Shown here: one piece after another, positions 2,059-11,172 of the stretch | How the letters are laid out: the number at the start of each line of letters is the position of its first letter | How positions within the stretch are numbered: the first letter of the stretch is position 1 | Virus genome (UHGV): UHGV-0123274 | DNA from: a virus | Reading direction: 5' to 3' (one strand) | Length of the DNA stretch: 15,494 nucleotides | Notes under the pieces: generated by a model | Told to the model about the DNA's origin: nothing | Seen by the model: the letters and a program-made list of their open reading frames with translations, nothing else | The model's database searches: none | Position numbers and translations under genes: made by a program

Positions 2059-2582
2059 TCACCCCTCGCATATTGTCCGTGATATTTGTTGATAGCCTCA
2101 CTGGCAACCAAACCAGCAAGCTCAAGATCTTCATAGAACCCAAAATGCAACCGGCCAAAATCTGTGCGCACTTGAACGGCCCATTTATTTTTTTGCTTGT
2201 TCCATAAAACATTTTTTATTCCAGAACGGCTATTGCACTTAGTTTTCTGATTTCGGCTGTTTGCTATCCGGCTTGCCTCCCTAAGATTTTTTGGGGAATT
2301 GTCCAGCCTGTTTCCGTTAATATGGTCAATATTTTTCAATGGCATTCTTTTGTTGTGCAGCGCAAAAACAACTACGTGAACAAACATCTGAATGCCTGCA
2401 AAACACACCTGTCTATACCCAGATCCATTTATCGATGTTTTAATTTCATCTCCGGCCCGGTGGCTGTGGTTGGGGTGTTTTAGCGAGTCCTTTTTGTATC
2501 TGACTGTATCTCCGTCTAAATACAGATAATCCTCAATAAGCCGATACCTATCTGACGCTGGCGTATTTGATTTGATAGTCAT
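2055..2582 (-). CDS. HNH homing-type endonuclease (HNH motif plus AP2-like DNA-binding region)
   Basis: Motif NIDHINGNRLDNSPKNLR (HNH) followed by WNKQKNKWAVQV...FGFYED (AP2-like); ATG at 2582 overlaps ninB stop (ATGA); track ORF start 2642 lies inside ninB. Confidence 0.8.
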   Translation of the reverse strand: MTIKSNTPASDRYRLIEDYLYLDGDTVRYKKDSLKHPNHSHRAGDEIKTSINGSGYRQVCFAGIQMFVHVVVFALHNKRMPLKNIDHINGNRLDNSPKNLREASRIANSRNQKTKCNSRSGIKNVLWNKQKNKWAVQVRTDFGRLHFGFYEDLELAGLVASEAINKYHGQYARGE

Positions 2583-3095: not shown

Positions 3096-4532
3096 TCAGA
3101 ATCCCCCTTTCTTCTTGGACTGCGGTTCCTTGCGTTCACGGCGGCGAATTTCAGCAGACTGTTGGTCTGTGTCATAAATAGCGCCATTTGCCTGAATGCA
3201 ATACACCGTACCGGTATTGCCATGACGATTGAGACGAAGGATTAGTTCGGTTTCACCAGGTGGAACACTGTCATCAAAAGCGCCTTCACGATGGATCCCA
3301 ACCCAATAATCGCAATCCTGTTCAATCTGCCCTGTATCTCGTGAGTCACTTGGTAATGGGCGTTTATTGGTTCGGCTTTCCAGTGCGCGGTTAAGCTGCG
3401 TCAGAAGCACAACAACGCAATCAAGCTCTTTGGCAAGGTTCTTCAGTCCTTTGGTGATCATGCCGTAAGCAAGGTCGTTGCGATCGGCCTTCTCAGCGGT
3501 CATTAGTGTCAGGTAATCGACCAGAATCATGCCAACACATCCTTTTTCTCGCTTGATTCGACGGCTTTCGCTGACGATTTGAGCCAGAGATAATCCCGGC
3601 GTGTCGTCGATGTAAAGCATGTCGATTTCACTCAAGCGATTAGCTGTTTCGATCGCCCTGTTGAAGGCACCATCGTAATCACCCTGATAGCCGTCATCAG
3701 CGTCATTTGTCGCCGGAAGGTAAAAAATATTCGGGTTAACACCAGACTTCTGCCCTACCAGTTTTTCCAGTATCTGATCACCTGGCATTTCAAGGCTGAA
3801 CATCAAAGCGGGCTTTTTCTCATGCACTGCGCAATTGATTGCCATCTGGCTGTATAGCGTCGTTTTCCCCATCTTAGGGCGAGCGCCAATGACAAACAGA
3901 GAGCCTTTCACCAGACCTTTCGGTGACAGCATCCTGTCCAGCGATGGGATCCCTGTGCTCATTCCCCGTTGTTCGCCTGATGGGTCAAATCGCTTCTCAA
4001 GGTCGCTAACCCAGTCTTCCATGACCTCACCAAATGAACGAAGGCCGCGACGCGATCCGGTTTTTGCATGGTCTGTCAGTTGCGTGAAAATCGCCTGAAT
4101 AGCTTCGTACTTCTGCGTTGCAGTCATTCCGTTGCGGGAATAGAGCAATTCCGTCGCTTCAGTCATGCGGTTGATGGCGTAGCGTTCCATTGCGGTTTCA
4201 CGAACCTGCATTGCATAGGCAACGATGTTTGCTGCGCTTGGCGTGTTCTTTGCGATCTCAGCGATATAAGCAAAACCGCCAACAGACGCCGTTAACGATT
4301 TACGCTCCAGTTCATCGAAAAGCGTCAGGCCATCTACTGGCTTTTGCTCCCGGTGCATTCTGGTTATTTCTTCGAAAAGGATTTTGTGTGGTCGGCCGTA
4401 AAATGAATCAGGCTTCAGCATCGCCAGAACTTTCCGGACGCGCTCACTGCTGTCATCATCCAGAAGCAATCCACCAATCACCGCCTGCTCTGCCTCGATG
4501 CTATGGGGCGGCGCATAAAAATTATCGGTCAT
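3096..4532 (-). CDS. DnaB-family replicative DNA helicase
   Basis: 478 aa from ATG at 4532 (GAGGG RBS); Walker A GARPKMGKT and DnaB-like N-terminal region; overlaps the stop of the O-like gene. Confidence 0.9.
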   Translation of the reverse strand: MTDNFYAPPHSIEAEQAVIGGLLLDDDSSERVRKVLAMLKPDSFYGRPHKILFEEITRMHREQKPVDGLTLFDELERKSLTASVGGFAYIAEIAKNTPSAANIVAYAMQVRETAMERYAINRMTEATELLYSRNGMTATQKYEAIQAIFTQLTDHAKTGSRRGLRSFGEVMEDWVSDLEKRFDPSGEQRGMSTGIPSLDRMLSPKGLVKGSLFVIGARPKMGKTTLYSQMAINCAVHEKKPALMFSLEMPGDQILEKLVGQKSGVNPNIFYLPATNDADDGYQGDYDGAFNRAIETANRLSEIDMLYIDDTPGLSLAQIVSESRRIKREKGCVGMILVDYLTLMTAEKADRNDLAYGMITKGLKNLAKELDCVVVLLTQLNRALESRTNKRPLPSDSRDTGQIEQDCDYWVGIHREGAFDDSVPPGETELILRLNRHGNTGTVYCIQANGAIYDTDQQSAEIRRRERKEPQSKKKGGF

Positions 4533-5421
4533 CGTGTTCACCCTCACGAACTTTCAGGTAGGTATTATCGTTAAGCAGGAAATCAAATCCCTTTTTGTGC
4601 CAGACGGTTCCGCGCTGATGGTTTGGGCGCTCTTCGAACATCCATCGGCAATTTTCGCCTACGTAGCTCAAATAATTTCTCCAGTCCTGCATCGTGAAAC
4701 CATGCCCGTCAAGCTGTCGGGTTATCACTCCGGCTTTGCGCCAGAACGTTCGGATCTGGTTTTTACGCTTGTCATTCAGTGCGCGGATTCTTGGCGCTTC
4801 AGGAAGGATTTCGTGGTAAGCATCGACAACATCCTGACAGCTGACGGAAGGTTTTTTCTTGTCAGACTTTTTGTCTGCTGTGGCACTCTCTAATACGTCA
4901 GTATTAGAGATAATATTATTATATTCTTTATCTGTGGTAATTTGCTGGTAATCTGCTGGTACAGTATTGCTTGCAGGCATTGGTATTGCTGGCTTTGAGG
5001 TGGTAATTTGCTGGTAATCTGCTGGTACAAAATTTGACTGATAATCGTCATATTTCTCTACCGAGAAAACTGAGAATTTACCGTGTGAAACCCAGTCAAT
5101 CATGCCGAGTTTTTTGAACTTTCTAAGCAGGTACTGAACGCGATCTGGTTTGAGTCCTGTTTCAAACGCCAGAGTATTTCTACCGCCAAGTAGCTTCCCT
5201 CTGCCTACCAGAATTTCTCCTGCGTCAGTCATTACATACTCAGGCGTATGCTTTGCTTTGAGGATTAAGTGAACCCACAGATGCGCAGTTTCTGCGTCCT
5301 TGTAAAACGGCACATCCATAATTTTACGGTGCAGCAAGGCATACCCCTTACCGCTGCTTTGATGCGGTTGTTGTAGCCTTCTGGCCTCTCTGGCTTCGGC
5401 TAGATTAGATATGTTACTCAT
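4522..5421 (-). CDS. Replication initiator, lambda O-like (contains origin iterons)
   Basis: 299-aa ORF with AAGGAG RBS; sits between cII and helicase; internal tandem peptide [10 protein letters not shown] x2 coded by DNA iterons. Confidence 0.8.
4900..5040. repeat. Origin-like iteron array plus adjacent AT-rich tract inside the O-like gene
   Basis: 30-bp direct repeat gtggtaatttgctggtaatctgctggtaca at 4934..4963 and 5000..5029, built from shorter ggta(a/t)t..gc sub-repeats; AT-rich tract at 4900..4930 downstream in O direction, as in lambda ori. Confidence 0.65.
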
Positions 5422-5930: not shown

Positions 5931-5975
5931 TTCCCGCATTTCGGCGGGAATGAGGACCATGACTGTTAAAGAGCG
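5931..5975 (-). promoter_or_regulatory. nutR-like antitermination site (boxA plus boxB hairpin)
   Basis: Minus strand reads CGCTCTTTAACA (boxA consensus) then hairpin uucccgc-cgaaau-gcgggaa; located directly downstream of cro, as in lambda. Confidence 0.6.
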
Positions 5976-6219: not shown

Positions 6220-6305
6220 TAATCACACACCCATTACACACAATTTGTGATTAACAGTCAACCTCAATTCGTGTACAGAGTTCAATCACGTTGCGTGTTA
6301 CATTT
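6220..6305. promoter_or_regulatory. oR operator region with pR (minus strand) and presumed pRM (plus strand)
   Basis: pR: -35 TTGACT (6256..6261) with 17-bp spacer and -10 TGTAAT (6233..6238) on minus strand; palindromic CACA..TGTG-type sites, one (acacaatttgtgatt) near-identical to a site in oL. Confidence 0.6.
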
Positions 6306-6310
6306 AAGGG

Positions 6311-6958
6311 ATGAAAACGATGCATGAAATTATCGGGGAAAGGATCAAGTCCCTTAGAGAAGCTAAAGGACTTAGCCAGGCTCAATTGGCCAAGCTTTGC
6401 GGCTGGGCTGCGCCTTCACGCCTGGGGAACTACGAGTTAGGAACAAGAAAGGTTAGCGCGGATGACGCGCTGGTTCTTGGGGCGGCACTCGGCGTATCTC
6501 CGGCAAAAATAATGTTTGGCGAGGATTCAGACGCCGTATTTCGCCAATATGAATACCCGTTATTTTCTTCAGTGCAGGCCGGGCCATTTTCGGAGGTGGG
6601 AAGCTACACAGCCAGCGATGCAAAGGCATGGGTCCCAACGACCACAAAAGCCAGCGAAAAAGCTTTCTGGCTTGAGGTGAAGGGGCATTCAATGACGGCG
6701 CCTCAGGGGGTTCGTCCAAGTTTTCCGGAAGGCATGCTGATACTCGTTGATCCGGCTGAGCCGGTAGAGTCTGGGGATTTCTGCGTGGCTTCTGCAAATG
6801 GTGATTCAGAGGCAACGTTCAAGAAGTATGAGAAGGATGCAGGGGTTAGTTACCTGGTACCTTTAAACCCGGCATATAGAACACTGGATTGCGACCATAG
6901 CTGCCGCATCATAGGCAAGGTAGTTAAGGCGCAGTGGCCTGAAGAGACGTTTGGCTGA
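6311..6958 (+). CDS. cI: CI-type prophage repressor (N-terminal HTH, C-terminal S24 LexA-like autopeptidase domain)
   Basis: 215 aa; [15 protein letters not shown]; Ala-Gly cleavage candidate in VQAGPF; Ser in GHSM and Lys in TFKKY; C-terminus AQWPEETFG resembles lambda cI as recalled. Confidence 0.9.
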
Positions 6959-7108
6959 TCGGCAAGGTGTTCTGGTCGGCGCATAGCTGGTGAAAAAATT
7001 ATTTAATGCGGTGTATTGGCTGATTGTAACCCCATGTAACATCTTGCCGTCACCATTTCGGTGGTTAGATTTTTAATAAAAAAAAACAAATGTATAGCAA
7101 GGTTTTTT

Positions 7109-7588
7109 ATGGATAAAATTAATTACCCACCCCTGTTTGAGCCAGGGTTCCATGACATGGATGAAGCTGGATTAAAATCGTATTGTGTCGATTGCTTTCC
7201 TTCATCATCCAGGCGAGGCATGCTATACTGTAATTTTATACAGCTACTCGAATCTATTCGAGAATTATCTGCTCAATATGGCTGTTTTACAGAAATATGG
7301 GTTGATGGTTCATACACCACGTCTAAACCAGAGCCTGATGATATTGATATTTTGTTGGTATGTGACTATAGCAATATAAACTCAATACCTGTCATGCTTC
7401 GGGGCCGCGTCGATAATTTGCTTGACCGAAACTACATCAAACAAAACTACAAAATTGATGTCCTACTACTCATGAAGAATTTAGATGACCCTAACTATGA
7501 TTATGAGTACTGGCGTAGCTACTGGCGCGGTTGGTTTGGTTTTGATCGCAGTGAAAACCCGAAAGGGTTAGTGAGGATTTTTTTATGA
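7109..7588 (+). CDS. Minimal nucleotidyltransferase-fold protein (Pol-beta superfamily), 159 aa; first gene of rexAB-position cassette
   Basis: Motif VDGSYTTSKPEPDDIDILLV fits the GS-x9-DxD signature (compare LFGSYARG...SDIDLLV in MNT proteins); ATG at 7109 preferred over GTG at 7061; visibly AT-rich. Confidence 0.65.
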   Translation: MDKINYPPLFEPGFHDMDEAGLKSYCVDCFPSSSRRGMLYCNFIQLLESIRELSAQYGCFTEIWVDGSYTTSKPEPDDIDILLVCDYSNINSIPVMLRGRVDNLLDRNYIKQNYKIDVLLLMKNLDDPNYDYEYWRSYWRGWFGFDRSENPKGLVRIFL

Positions 7589-8517
7589 ATGATAAATCAA
7601 TGTTTAAAAATTGCGATAAACGCATTGATTTCATTCAAAAAGAAGTCGATGCAATGAAGCAAAACAAAACCAGGTCCTTTGCTGACATGCTTCTTTATCG
7701 CTCCATGGATTCTCATCTGAGCGATTTGAAGGCCGAAAAATTAAAGCAAGATAGTCGGCACCCACTTATCGATTTTTTTGAGCTGCGGCTGAAAGGCTCT
7801 GAGGTTGACTTTGGCTCTATTCCTTTAGAGCTGCTTGGGGCTATTTCAACAAATCTTGCAGCGCTAATACAAAGAGCAACACACAAAATTGCCTCAGGCA
7901 AGGACTCAAAAAAAGTTCCCTACGACGTGAAAAGCTCCTTAAACCTCAGGCTGGCTGATTTATCCCCTGGGTCTACAAAATTGGGCGTCACCTTCTCTAC
8001 AGGAATAGCAGAATTAGTAGAAACAGTACCCAGCAAGGCTGTAAAAGGCATATTCGATTTGTTGTTAAGCGATGACGACAACAACTTCATGAATCACGTC
8101 GCTGAAATTGGATACAATTCCACTGTAAGCCTTAAGAGAATCGTAGAGGAATGCGATAAACACAACTTAACATTTGATGCAAGTTGGACCGGTCCATTTA
8201 GTAATGGCACCAAGGTGGCAACTATTGACTCCAATAAAATTAAGTACTTGGTGAGTAGACTTACATCAACCATTTCATCCCCTCCCATTACTGAAACGGT
8301 TACAGGCGAACTGGTCGTTCTATCCAAATATGGGAAGCTGGAGCTTGATGTTGGTGGTGAACATTTAAAGGCTTCCTATCCGATTGAAATGCTAGATTTA
8401 ATACAAAAAAAACACAAGGTCGGACAGATTGTTTCTCTTTTAGTGGAGACTACTGAGATTCACAATGATCGCATAGGTCTGTACCGTAAAAACCATCTTG
8501 TTAAATCGGTTCTTTAA
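7585..8517 (+). CDS. Hypothetical 310-aa protein, second gene of rexAB-position cassette; no confident domain
   Basis: ATGA overlap with upstream gene, GAGGA RBS; soluble-looking, no obvious TM segment; AT-rich. Confidence 0.75.
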   Translation: MNDKSMFKNCDKRIDFIQKEVDAMKQNKTRSFADMLLYRSMDSHLSDLKAEKLKQDSRHPLIDFFELRLKGSEVDFGSIPLELLGAISTNLAALIQRATHKIASGKDSKKVPYDVKSSLNLRLADLSPGSTKLGVTFSTGIAELVETVPSKAVKGIFDLLLSDDDNNFMNHVAEIGYNSTVSLKRIVEECDKHNLTFDASWTGPFSNGTKVATIDSNKIKYLVSRLTSTISSPPITETVTGELVVLSKYGKLELDVGGEHLKASYPIEMLDLIQKKHKVGQIVSLLVETTEIHNDRIGLYRKNHLVKSVL

Positions 8518-8524
8518 TATCTCA

Positions 8525-8550
8525 CCCGGCCACCGCGCCGGGTTTTTTAT
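8525..8550 (+). terminator. Intrinsic terminator after the cassette (tImm-like)
   Basis: Hairpin cccggc-caccgc-gccggg followed by tttttt; resembles the lambda terminator after rexB as recalled. Confidence 0.7.
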
Positions 8551-8764: not shown

Positions 8765-8830
8765 ATAACGTGTCACACCTTTATTTTACACATTTTGTGA
8801 TTGACCATTAAATCACAATATGTGACTATC
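8765..8830 (+). promoter_or_regulatory. oL operator region and pL promoter
   Basis: -35 TTGACC (8801..8806), 17-bp spacer, -10 GACTAT (8824..8829); flanking palindromic sites acacattttgtgatt and tcacaatatgtga; downstream ATCAGCAGGACGC resembles the lambda pL start region as recalled. Confidence 0.6.
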
Positions 8831-8875: not shown

Positions 8876-8917
8876 GGCTCTTTAACATTGATGGGATTGT
8901 CCCGCCGAAATGCGGGA
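8876..8917 (+). promoter_or_regulatory. nutL-like site (boxA plus boxB)
   Basis: GGCTCTTTAACA (boxA-like) then hairpin tcccgc-cgaaat-gcggga; boxB identical to the nutR copy. Confidence 0.6.
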
Positions 8918-9275
8918 ACTGAGTTTAACAAAACAGGAGGTGCCGTAATGGTGCACTAACGCGGTTAGACCGCAGCCGAAAGGCAATGCAGCAGTAATGA
9001 TGCTGCCCCGAGTCGCGTAATGGCGAGCAGGTTTAGCAGACCGATGTGAGGGTAAATAAGGGAACATGCTCCGGAAAGGCAGCGCGAATGCCAGACGCGC
9101 ACCGGTTATCAGCGGCTAATAAGCGACAGAGACTCAAGGGCATGAGCGCGCTCACTGCGAGAGTGTGAGTCAAAGAGTAGTTGGCTTTGGGGTGACGTGA
9201 AGTGCAGCTGCACGACGGCAACCGGAAGATAAGCACCCGGCGCGTCACCGCCAAAGTCAATCATCGGAGGTCAAC

Positions 9276-9551: not shown

Positions 9552-9776
9552 ATGAATCAGACATACATTCCATCATGCTTGAGAAATCTGCCAAAGCAGA
9601 AAGCAAAGCCCCGCAAGCAAGCCATAAAGGACGCTAAGGCAGAGGTTATTGATCAAGCAATACAATTGCTCAGGGAGGAGTTAAGAAGTGGCAAGCTCGA
9701 AGGAATGATGATGCCCTATCAGCGCGGATATCTATCGGCGATTAGTAAGTTGGAAGTATTGAAGAGTGAATTATGA
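9552..9776 (+). CDS. Hypothetical early-left protein, 74 aa
   Basis: ATG at 9552 with GAGG RBS immediately after the N stop. Confidence 0.5.
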   Translation: MNQTYIPSCLRNLPKQKAKPRKQAIKDAKAEVIDQAIQLLREELRSGKLEGMMMPYQRGYLSAISKLEVLKSEL

Positions 9777-9838
9777 ACTATCTGGAATTTCCGGATGGTT
9801 CATTGTTTTGGCAGCAAACCACTTATTTGAGGTGATAT

Positions 9839-10288
9839 ATGGAAGAACAAGCAAACAAGATTCTCGTAGAACTACTGCAAAAAGCCAGTAATGGAATAGA
9901 CGCGGCTGTTTCATTCAGCCAGGCACAGATTCCTGATGTTGTTCATCAGTTGCTGCTATGGAATATGGTTGACAGTCTGATTAAAACATTAATGGCCATT
10001 CTAACAATCCCACTGGTTTTCTGGTTTATGAAGAAGCAGTGCCAAAGAGTTGAGACAGGTAAAATCGGTGATGAAGGATATTCATGGGAGAAAGGAAATC
10101 CCAAATACATGCCGACAATGGTTTGGGATAGCAAAGGTGATATTAATCTTCTTATCATGCCATTGGTTGTAGTTTTGACTCTGTGGGGGATTTTTATTAT
10201 TGGTGTAGTAACCAATATGACTTGGTTAAAAATTTGGCTGGCCCCAAAGCTTTACCTTATCGAATATGCAGCATCATTGGTTAAGTAA
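9839..10288 (+). CDS. Small membrane protein, 149 aa, two predicted TM helices; possible superinfection-exclusion protein
   Basis: Hydrophobic stretches MAILTIPLVFWFM and LLIMPLVVVLTLWGIFIIGVV; GAGG RBS; followed directly by a terminator; AT-rich. Confidence 0.7.
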   Translation: MEEQANKILVELLQKASNGIDAAVSFSQAQIPDVVHQLLLWNMVDSLIKTLMAILTIPLVFWFMKKQCQRVETGKIGDEGYSWEKGNPKYMPTMVWDSKGDINLLIMPLVVVLTLWGIFIIGVVTNMTWLKIWLAPKLYLIEYAASLVK

Positions 10289-10292
10289 TTTC

Positions 10293-10317
10293 AGGCCGCA
10301 TAGTCGGCCTTTATTTT
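10293..10317 (+). terminator. Intrinsic terminator after the membrane-protein gene
   Basis: Hairpin aggccg-catagt-cggcct followed by ttatttt. Confidence 0.6.
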
Positions 10318-10340
10318 GGGCATAAACAACAGAGGTGAAT

Positions 10341-10628
10341 ATGAAAGAGTTTAAGGGTACGCCTGGTAAATGGAAGTACACGGTTAGAAACGTCAACGAG
10401 ATGATGACTACGTTCCATGGTGTGACGATTGGTGACACATACATTGAAGCAGCAACAAGAAATGAAAGGGAGGATGCGCTACTGATAGCGGCAGCACCTG
10501 ACCTTCTCGAAGCACTTCAGTTATTACTTAAGCAATCCAAAAATAGAACAACGACAACATATCCAGAATGGTATGAAGCTGTTAATAAAGGTCTTGCAGC
10601 AATCAGAAAAGCTCTTGGGGATAAGTAA
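10341..10628 (+). CDS. Hypothetical protein, about 95 aa
   Basis: ATG at 10341 with AGAGG RBS; the track ORF begins at an upstream GTG (10335). Confidence 0.55.
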   Translation: MKEFKGTPGKWKYTVRNVNEMMTTFHGVTIGDTYIEAATRNEREDALLIAAAPDLLEALQLLLKQSKNRTTTTYPEWYEAVNKGLAAIRKALGDK

Positions 10629-10816
10629 TGAAAGTAAAAATAACTGCTTCTAATACCAGTTTTGTTAGTGTTGGTGATATTACAGAAGTAATAACAAACC
10701 ATGATGGAACCCAAGTTATGTGGTCTGATTTTTGTAAAAGATATGAGCGAGTCACTTGGTGTAAACTCGTATGGGGCGTCGAATACGAAGAATTACCTGA
10801 AATGCATGACGAATAA
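10628..10816 (+). CDS. Hypothetical protein, 62 aa
   Basis: Start overlaps the upstream stop by one base (taATG); no recognisable motif. Confidence 0.45.
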   Translation: MKVKITASNTSFVSVGDITEVITNHDGTQVMWSDFCKRYERVTWCKLVWGVEYEELPEMHDE

Positions 10817-10911: not shown

Positions 10912-10937
10912 GCCCTCCAGTGTGAGGGCTTTTTTAT
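10912..10937 (+). terminator. Intrinsic terminator upstream of cIII
   Basis: Hairpin gccctc-cagtgt-gagggc followed by tttttt. Confidence 0.6.
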
Positions 10938-11001: not shown

Positions 11002-11172
11002 ATGCAACAGTTCGCTATTGCAGGGGCGGCATCGGTTCGCCCTTTCAACCCGATTTTATCGGTACAGCATTCACGAAAAAATATTTTAACCGGAGCAGAC
11101 TTTAAACAACCTCGCGTTAAGAGCTTGCTGGATCGTCTTGTTGAGTTTCTGAATCAAAAGGTACAGCCATGA
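11002..11172 (+). CDS. cIII: CIII-like protein (FtsH inhibitor that stabilises CII)
   Basis: 56 aa from ATG at 11002 with AGGAG RBS; MQQFAIAG...KSLLDRLVEFLNQ resembles lambda CIII (MQYAIAG...LIDILNQ) as recalled. Confidence 0.7.
   Translation: MQQFAIAGAASVRPFNPILSVQHSRKNILTGADFKQPRVKSLLDRLVEFLNQKVQP

Follow-up and report, generated by a model that had tools for sequence, protein, structure and literature searches.

Results

A membrane-protein gene between N and cIII

The window, i.e. the whole stretch of 15,494 nucleotides of viral DNA analysed here, contains at 9839..10288 on the + strand an open reading frame that starts with ATG, ends with TAA and encodes a product of 149 amino acids (aa). 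A strong Shine-Dalgarno site, GAGGTGA, precedes the start codon with a spacing of 3 nt. The frame is under purifying selection (dN/dS 0.24 among 55 distinct alleles) and full-length homologues of its product number in the hundreds, so that it represents more than a chance ORF. An antisense ORF at 9946..10215 was also considered as a gene and dismissed, because it is the + strand reading frame on which selection acts. Scanning the entire window against Rfam revealed no RNA family match. The initial annotation had described AT-rich coding and a product with two strongly hydrophobic segments, and both descriptions hold. The GC content of the gene is 39.3%, compared to 45.5% for the whole window, and the best 19-residue means of a Kyte-Doolittle scan were 1.87 for transmembrane helix 1 (TM1, residues ~43-64) and 2.69 for transmembrane helix 2 (TM2, residues ~103-126). 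Across 75 diverse homologues, this hydrophobicity is kept in 73 for TM1 and in 71 for TM2.

In lambdoid terms, the + strand of the window runs leftward, in the direction of PL. Along it follow the PL operators, nutL, the N-like gene, an ORF of 75 aa, a strong hairpin and the gene at 9839..10288 (Table 1). Read directly from the sequence, two hexamers embedded in the operator repeats would constitute the PL promoter; a strict consensus promoter scan did not report this site (8801..8829). On the PR side, the nutL-like site has its nutR counterpart in two copies, one of 19 nt (5931..5949, inverted and perfect) and one of 18 nt (5957..5974). On the other flank of the gene, the cIII-like ORF displays weak protein similarity to lambda cIII, the terminators of the window at 10912 and 10950 fall in DNA homologous to the tL2A/tL2B-cIII region of HK620, and RecT-like and then Gam-like genes follow 3' of the cIII-like ORF. 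The initial annotation had placed the gene between N and cIII, a part of lambdoid genomes that carries sieB and ral. The phrog_271 match of the N-like gene and the HK620-homologous cIII region bear out this placement, and the occurrence of sieB and ral in the same interval was found in annotated phage records.

Table 1. Features of the window in and around the early-left operon (positions in nucleotides of the window).
Feature	Position	Strand	Basis
cI-like repressor gene	6311..6958		phrog_4; upstream of the operators in + strand order
Two genes in the rexA/rexB position of lambda	7061..8517		PADLOC-DB 2.0 matches PDC-M63A, PDC-M63B
Terminator	8524		Between rex-position genes and operator repeats
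OL operator repeats	8773..8830		Match repeats 6223..6255 beside the cI-like gene
Putative PL promoter: TTGACC, 17 nt spacer, GACTAT	8801..8829	+	Hexamers read directly; embedded in OL repeats
nutL-like site: boxA-like GGCTCTTTAACA and boxB hairpin 8900..8918	8876..8918	+	Copies on PR side
N-like antiterminator gene, 90 aa	9276..9548	+	phrog_271, E 2.8e-33; DNA matches on annotated N genes
75-aa ORF	Between N-like gene and 9768..9815 hairpin	+	Operon order
Strong hairpin over stop codon of 75-aa ORF, then UUGUUUUGG; putative tL1-type terminator	9768..9815	+	Terminator scan, folding
Mosaic cassette: ribosome-binding site, ORF and terminator	9807/9830..10333	+	Homology edges, 80 IMG/VR loci
Shine-Dalgarno site GAGGTGA	9829..9835	+	Read from sequence; within conserved left cassette edge
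CDS, 149-aa two-pass membrane protein, PHROG 3054 (Sf6 gp34-like) family	9839..10288	+	ORF scan, profile match
Acidic N-terminal tail, codons 1-42, motif FSQAQIPDV..QLLxW	9839..9964	+	dN/dS 0.10
TM1, codons 43-64	9965..10030	+	Hydropathy; dN/dS 0.15
Variable loop, codons 65-102	10031..10144	+	dN/dS 0.27
TM2, codons 103-126	10145..10216	+	Hydropathy; dN/dS 0.88
C-terminal tail, codons 127-149 and stop, WLKIWLAPKLYLIEYAASLVK	10217..10288	+	dN/dS 0.09
Intrinsic-terminator-like hairpin and T-run closing the cassette	10293..10320	+	Terminator scan, RNA folding, conservation
Segment with two small ORFs	10335..10816		3' of the gene's terminator
cIII-like ORF	about 11002..11172		DNA homologous to annotated HK620 cIII region

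Hairpins on both sides of the gene

The terminator scan detected, five bases past the stop codon, a stem at 10293..10310 of 6 pairs (5 of them G-C) with a loop of 6, followed by TTATTTTGGG. RNA folding of this site yielded -9.7 kcal/mol and a z of -1.25 versus shuffles, which is weak on energy alone. The terminator reading is based on conservation instead: an identical hairpin is found 3' of the 50%-identical homologue of CUS-3, a variant with a different loop lies 3' of the Oslo homologue, and the homology of 59 of 80 related loci ends at 10333. With this support, the earlier claim that a terminator immediately follows the gene can be upheld.

The hairpin just upstream of the cassette is far more stable (-19.9 kcal/mol, z -5.6; 0 of 200 shuffles fold equally well). 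It is terminator-like by the scan and has a U-run 3' of it. Since the homology of 16 related loci begins at 9807, just after this hairpin, it was assigned to the upstream module. The same scan identified the two further terminators within the HK620-homologous stretch. Annotated lambdoid relatives contain tL-type terminators in the same N-cIII interval, and terminators between N and cIII are an ordinary lambdoid feature.

Gene and terminator travel as one cassette

Among 80 related prophage loci from IMG/VR, the gene and its terminator travel as one unit, while the flanks are mosaic. The left homology edge maps to position 9830 (31 loci), 9807 (16 loci) or 9814 (13 loci), and the right edge lies at 10333, just past the hairpin, in 59 of the 80. 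The cIII-proximal segment, corresponding to the window from 10817 onward, is situated within about 10 nt of the cassette in 57 loci. As these loci join the two directly, the 483 bp with the two small ORFs that separate them here are an extra insertion. Of 5,426 complete E. coli genomes, 130 contain the cassette. In about 570 further E. coli genomes, its first ~35-44 nt stand before other genes, as a shared junction sequence typical of lambdoid module boundaries.

The conserved left edge is located 9-32 nt 5' of the ATG, so that the ribosome-binding site is the only signal inside. A simple consensus scan revealed no sigma-70-like promoter upstream of the gene or within the cassette; a weak or atypical promoter could escape such a scan. 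Given this result, the position of the left edge and the strong hairpin that precedes it, the cassette most probably lacks a promoter of its own. Expression should therefore depend on PL and on N-mediated read-through, i.e. on lytic development, and no expression of the gene is expected while the prophage is repressed.

Two constrained tails on a drifting membrane anchor

Alignment of 75 cluster representatives and hydropathy analysis over these members showed that the window protein contains both family motifs and the two hydrophobic helices. The regional dN/dS values given in Table 1 were computed among close alleles and reveal a marked contrast between the tails and TM2, the evolution of which is almost neutral. 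In the N-tail, P32 is invariant and G19 nearly so, and over residues 19-42, 72% of the 75 sequences have the consensus residue on average. The corresponding mean is 78% for the C-tail, whose motif WLKIWxAPKLYLIEYAASL (residues 127-149) includes an invariant Y143 and the nearly invariant P136, K137 and E142. Across the family, the transmembrane helices retain their hydrophobicity and not their sequence, and the loop between them varies in length from 10 to 70 aa. A channel or holin should show constraint in its helices. Because the constraint here sits in the tails, these probably carry the information, with the helices as an anchor.

Since the chain crosses the membrane twice, its N-tail and C-tail would be placed on the same side. 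The positive-inside rule gives mutually contradictory signals as to which side this might be: the N-tail contains few lysines and arginines and is acidic (mean net charge -3.4), the loop changes from basic beside TM1 to acidic beside TM2, and the C-tail carries conserved lysines. In a covariation analysis that was underpowered, with an effective number of sequences of 169, the top pairs within the N-tail were 5-27, 8-27, 5-23 and 12-21, and one pair between N-tail and C-tail (27-138) ranked in the top ten. The N-tail pairs fit a helix 3-17 lying antiparallel to a helix 20-30, as might be formed by a hairpin at G19 or by an antiparallel dimer.

The AlphaFold2 model is confident (pLDDT 87) and all-helical, with the tails flanking both membrane helices. 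Foldseek returned 0 hits for this model against the PDB, and a profile search of PDB sequences detected no relative, the only match being a GPCR chimera at E 0.3. Against BFVD, Foldseek gave one clear match only, an uncharacterised protein of Pseudomonas phage Bjorn. Bjorn is also among the phages with tblastn hits.

A large phage protein family with variable neighbours

The 149-aa protein matches PHROG 3054 with E 3.2e-64 and 216.6 bits, residues 1-149 aligning to profile positions 1-137 of 137. This family, POG0622/VOG0622 in older schemes, includes the gene 34 protein of Shigella phage Sf6, HK639 gp44 and CUS-3 ECRS218_0047, and a distant member from a further contig (L091) matches it at E 4.8e-47. 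The window protein shares with the family the two helices, the N- and C-terminal motifs and the N-cIII slot in lambdoid/P22-like phages. It is 97% identical to NCBI deposits, all of them named 'hypothetical'. The window copy is thus an ordinary member of a catalogued phage family. When 1.84 billion cluster representatives were searched with a profile, at least 2,431 clusters (50% identity) were retrieved at E up to 0.001, and 1,074 at E up to 1e-10; nearly all representatives are 120-180 aa long, and source names in the large protein searches read 'hypothetical protein' or equivalent throughout. The 149-aa protein had no match in Pfam, NCBIfam or PADLOC (Pfam and PADLOC at E up to 1), and a Pfam scan of the 75 diverse members gave scattered chance hits only, with no family common to more than 3 of them. 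No functional study emerged from our literature search, which covered Sf6 gp34, phrog_3054, N4 gp8, membrane proteins of the early-left operon and two-TM exclusion proteins. A paper on phage L reports that the function of most early-left genes is unknown (PMC8022706).

In the lambdoid/P22-like phages Sf6 (gene 34), CUS-3, HK639 and Oslo, the gene lies in the early-left operon, in the N-cIII interval wherever context was looked at. Elsewhere, members are found after thymidylate synthase (N4-like Vibrio phage 1.245.O), between RNA polymerase genes and dUTPase (gp83 of the N4-like Shigella phage B2), upstream of an ATPase and an endonuclease (phAPEC8-like Escherichia phage muut), between DUF2800 genes (Vibrio phage 1.194.O, 59-kb genome) and after a gene annotated as DNA polymerase III beta subunit (Citrobacter phage K1M). 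Further carriers are the Pseudomonas phages Lyrsu02, where the copy lies among small early genes, and Bjorn, Vibrio siphophages, Ralstonia jumbo phage RsoM2USA, an Achromobacter genome, Achromobacter and Pusillimonas prophages, and 46-48 kb records of non-mobilizable plasmids. Usually, then, members are surrounded by early, replication or nucleotide-metabolism genes. Two locations are classical moron sites: in a P22-like metagenomic contig the gene is flanked by the late-operon homologues of gp4 and gp10, and in phage PhiR46_1 it lies between lysis genes and terminase, ~1.6 kb downstream of the holin-lysozyme-Rz genes.

Among species-representative genomes, loci were found almost exclusively in Gamma- and Betaproteobacteria. 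The family is frequent among obligately lytic phages (virulent N4-like, phAPEC8-like and Vibrio phages); in N4 itself, no homologue was found in the first 20 kb of the genome. Neighbours differed across all contexts compared and no conserved partner gene emerged, so that the protein probably works on its own or together with host factors. The virion proteins that mass spectrometry lists for B2 (PMC11654681) do not include gp83; to the extent of these data, the family protein does not belong to the virion.

Discussion

A lytic-cycle membrane effector as a tentative reading

The features of the gene lead us to lean, without calling it probable, towards a lytic-cycle effector tethered to the membrane, the conserved tails of which would bind a conserved component of the host envelope. 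On this proposal, the gene would be a stand-alone accessory cassette of the PL operon, transcribed only in lytic development when N-modified RNA polymerase reads through the flanking terminators. Its product would be a two-pass inner-membrane protein whose transmembrane helices mainly provide generic anchoring. The activity would reside in a small helical module composed of the acidic first ~42 residues and the last ~23 on the same membrane side. By binding a conserved component of the envelope, or one associated with the inner membrane, this module would alter the infected cell, and its role would be host takeover or envelope modification rather than that of a pore or of a prophage-expressed killer of the SieB type. 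A conserved host target is suggested as the most likely partner of the tails because their conservation extends to temperate, virulent and jumbo phages alike, in Gamma- and Betaproteobacteria. Counting against such an effector, the members at late-operon moron sites do not fit expression that is early only, and they resemble fitness genes expressed in the lysogen.

Alternative functions

Several other functions have to be weighed against a takeover effector. The one we would next consider, unlikely in our view yet with real points in its favour, is superinfection exclusion during lytic growth, in which an early protein, by analogy with T4 Imm or Sp, would block DNA entry or cell-wall penetration at the inner membrane. 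A small two-pass membrane protein encoded by a sporadic, accessory, cassette-like gene of an early operon would suit this role, and the hypervariable loop could face the incoming phage. Moreover, the N4-like members sit in a variable island after the RNAP II genes, which in N4 contains a 'superinfection exclusion' gene (P22 gp17-like), a membrane protein and a lipoprotein, and in B2 also an outer-membrane-anchored collagen/YadA-like protein. An accessory protective role likewise stays plausible for the family given its members at late-operon moron sites, the kind of site occupied by the exclusion moron HK97 gp15. However, exclusion proteins tend to be narrow and fast-evolving, whereas the constrained parts of this family are near-identical in phages that differ in host and deliver their DNA by unrelated machines. 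Selection on the loop is relaxed rather than positive, and homology to known exclusion families is absent: neither the window protein nor the 75 relatives matched a Pfam exclusion family, including SieB (PF14163), at E up to 1, and the Pfam families of T4 Imm (Imm_superinfect) and Sp were not matched by any of the 75 members. A counter-defence factor would, from its tether in the membrane, inhibit a host or prophage defence that is itself associated with the membrane, following the logic of T4 rII versus Rex. It would be at home in a PL operon that holds the anti-host and anti-defence genes ral and gam, and an accessory, mosaic gene present in virulent phages would be in keeping with it, as would the P22 gp17-type genes that share the lambdoid interval and the gp17-like gene of the equivalent N4 island. 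We nevertheless regard it as rather improbable, given that no known anti-defence homologue and no linked defence target were found and that such broad conservation would need an equally broad defence target.

The initial annotation had proposed a factor that excludes superinfecting phage at the membrane, of which a SieB/RexB-like exclusion or abortive-infection protein expressed from the prophage is the form considered here. We disfavour this proposal and assign it little probability, even though the gene shares its interval with sieB and ral, encodes a membrane protein in AT-rich, terminator-bounded DNA as a moron would, and has relatives at moron sites. A cassette that lacks a promoter and lies behind both PL and a terminator-like hairpin is poorly placed for expression in a lysogen, and the family is widespread in obligately lytic phages, which never form lysogens. 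The near-neutral evolution of TM2 argues against a channel-forming killer. The kinship with SieB-like families that the earlier note invited one to look for was not found: hhalign detected no relation to lambda SieB (probability 0.2%) and gave probabilities of 0.1% for lambda RexB and 0.3% for P22 SieA. No PADLOC-DB 2.0 family matched the 149-aa protein at E up to 1 either; the genes in the rex position did match and thereby served as a positive control. The least credible of these functions is control of lysis timing, as a holin, an antiholin or otherwise. Such a role could be suggested by any small phage-encoded protein with two transmembrane helices, and by the proximity of the PhiR46_1 member to lysis genes. 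But an endolysin gene adjoins the gene neither in the window nor in most other contexts, the gene belongs to an early operon, no holin Pfam family was found in any of the 75 members, and the transmembrane helices are the least constrained part of the protein. Holins typically have a highly charged tail, whereas the C-tail here is hydrophobic and amphipathic.

Wider meaning of the family

The family, with its thousands of members in temperate, virulent and jumbo phages, is without a Pfam model or a solved structure. The constraint pattern, two near-invariant tails on a freely drifting membrane anchor, is unusually clean, and this should make the family experimentally tractable, so that a function could be assigned to thousands of phage genes. 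It also bears on whether the lambdoid N-cIII interval holds a further envelope-directed function besides sieB and ral. With somewhat more reserve than for the takeover effector itself, we suggest that the family may represent a new class of phage membrane effector across Proteobacteria, in which a two-helix anchor would carry a composite domain of ~65 residues, made up of the N- and C-terminal tails, that binds a conserved envelope component; it could then embody a new mechanism of exclusion, takeover or counter-defence.

Comparison with known systems

SieB and the window protein are alike in being membrane proteins encoded in the lambdoid N-cIII interval. They differ in orientation, as sieB runs antisense to PL in the lambda and Oslo records while the window gene, like N, lies on the + strand, sense to PL; in phage Oslo, SieB and a homologue of the window gene are encoded side by side. 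They differ also in length, SieB comprising about 184-195 aa compared to 149 aa, and SieB has its own promoter. RexB-type proteins have a RexA-like partner and belong to the cI operon; the window gene lies outside the cI operon and has no conserved partner gene. T4 Imm, a small early inner-membrane protein with two hydrophobic helices that excludes superinfecting phage in lytic infection, resembles the window protein in these general features. Of about 83 aa, Imm is without long conserved N- and C-terminal tails; it would be the best functional analogue if the protein were to act in exclusion during lytic growth.

As a genetic element, the cassette is closest to the lambdoid morons, which include HK97 gp15 and lambda bor. 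It differs from them with respect to the promoter: the consensus scan detected none, and the conserved left edge comprises no more than the ribosome-binding site. The terminator, by contrast, travels with the gene, as shown by the common right edge and by the hairpins kept after divergent homologues. Like these morons, the cassette consists of a single AT-rich accessory gene that is closed by a terminator and mobile as a unit.

Transcriptional setting of the cassette

The 75-aa ORF (phrog_5305) has its stop codon within the hairpin upstream of the cassette, a very stable structure (-19.9 kcal/mol, z -5.6). Together with the UUGUUUUGG that follows, this hairpin is probably a tL1-type terminator, which would impose N dependence on the genes downstream. 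Neither a convincing ORF nor an Rfam match was found in the long N leader. The insertion that follows the cassette is missing in 57 of the 80 related loci; in these, the tL2/cIII segment comes immediately after the cassette. For the cIII-like ORF, a Pfam search returned no match; its protein shows weak similarity to lambda cIII (E 0.006), with a common MQ-FAIAG start, and at the DNA level the ORF is homologous to the annotated cIII region of HK620.

Positions of features in the window and in related sequences
Feature	Sequence	Position	Strand	Remarks
Overlapping gene pair, 175 and 310 aa	window	7061..7588 and 7585..8517	+	between cI-like repressor gene and PL
Terminator	window	8524..8543		3' of the 310-aa gene
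N leader, ~350 nt	window	8920..9275	+	nutL to N start codon
Hairpin, then UUGUUUUGG	window	9768..9815	+	upstream of cassette
Cassette 5' junction	window; L090 (sequence cited alongside)	9807..9850; 2501..2535		includes ribosome-binding site and first codons
Two small ORFs, 97 aa (phrog_1273) and 62 aa (phrog_10407)	window	10335..10816	+	483-bp insertion
cIII-like ORF	window	11002..11172	+	
gp84	Shigella phage B2 (L087)	3973..4962		immediately downstream of family member gp83
Terminator	L091 (P22-like metagenomic contig)	3369..3382		
Family member and 184-aa partner (phrog_2452)	L091	3450..4453		late operon
Homologue of the gene under study	Escherichia phage PhiR46_1 (L096)	4001..4450		76% identity

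The cassette junction and family members in other contexts

Approximately 570 more E. coli genomes also have the 5' junction of the cassette, there ahead of unrelated genes. At this slot, an O157:H7 prophage carries a different gene, which is interrupted by an inserted IS1203 (IS3-family).

Family members are found in other surroundings as well. The PhiR46_1 homologue lies outside the early-left operon, with the holin, lysozyme and Rz genes for lysis on one side and the terminase gene Nu1 on the other, and similar copies are present on 46-48 kb non-mobilizable plasmid records. On the P22-like contig, the family member and its partner form an insertion that separates the gp4 homologue from the gp10 homologue, just after a terminator. 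In B2, a virulent N4-like phage, Pfam matches (E 7.6e-23 and 1.4e-19) identify collagen triple-helix repeats and a YadA-like outer-membrane anchor in the neighbouring gp84; such a trimeric-autotransporter-type anchor is unusual for a lytic phage.

A candidate defence pair at the rex position

In PADLOC, the overlapping genes between the repressor gene and PL match PDC-M63A (E 2.4e-41) and PDC-M63B (E 7.5e-45), which together make up a candidate defence pair. These two genes are more likely than the gene under study (9839..10288) to be a prophage-expressed defence module. In lambda, the slot that they hold is occupied by rexA and rexB.
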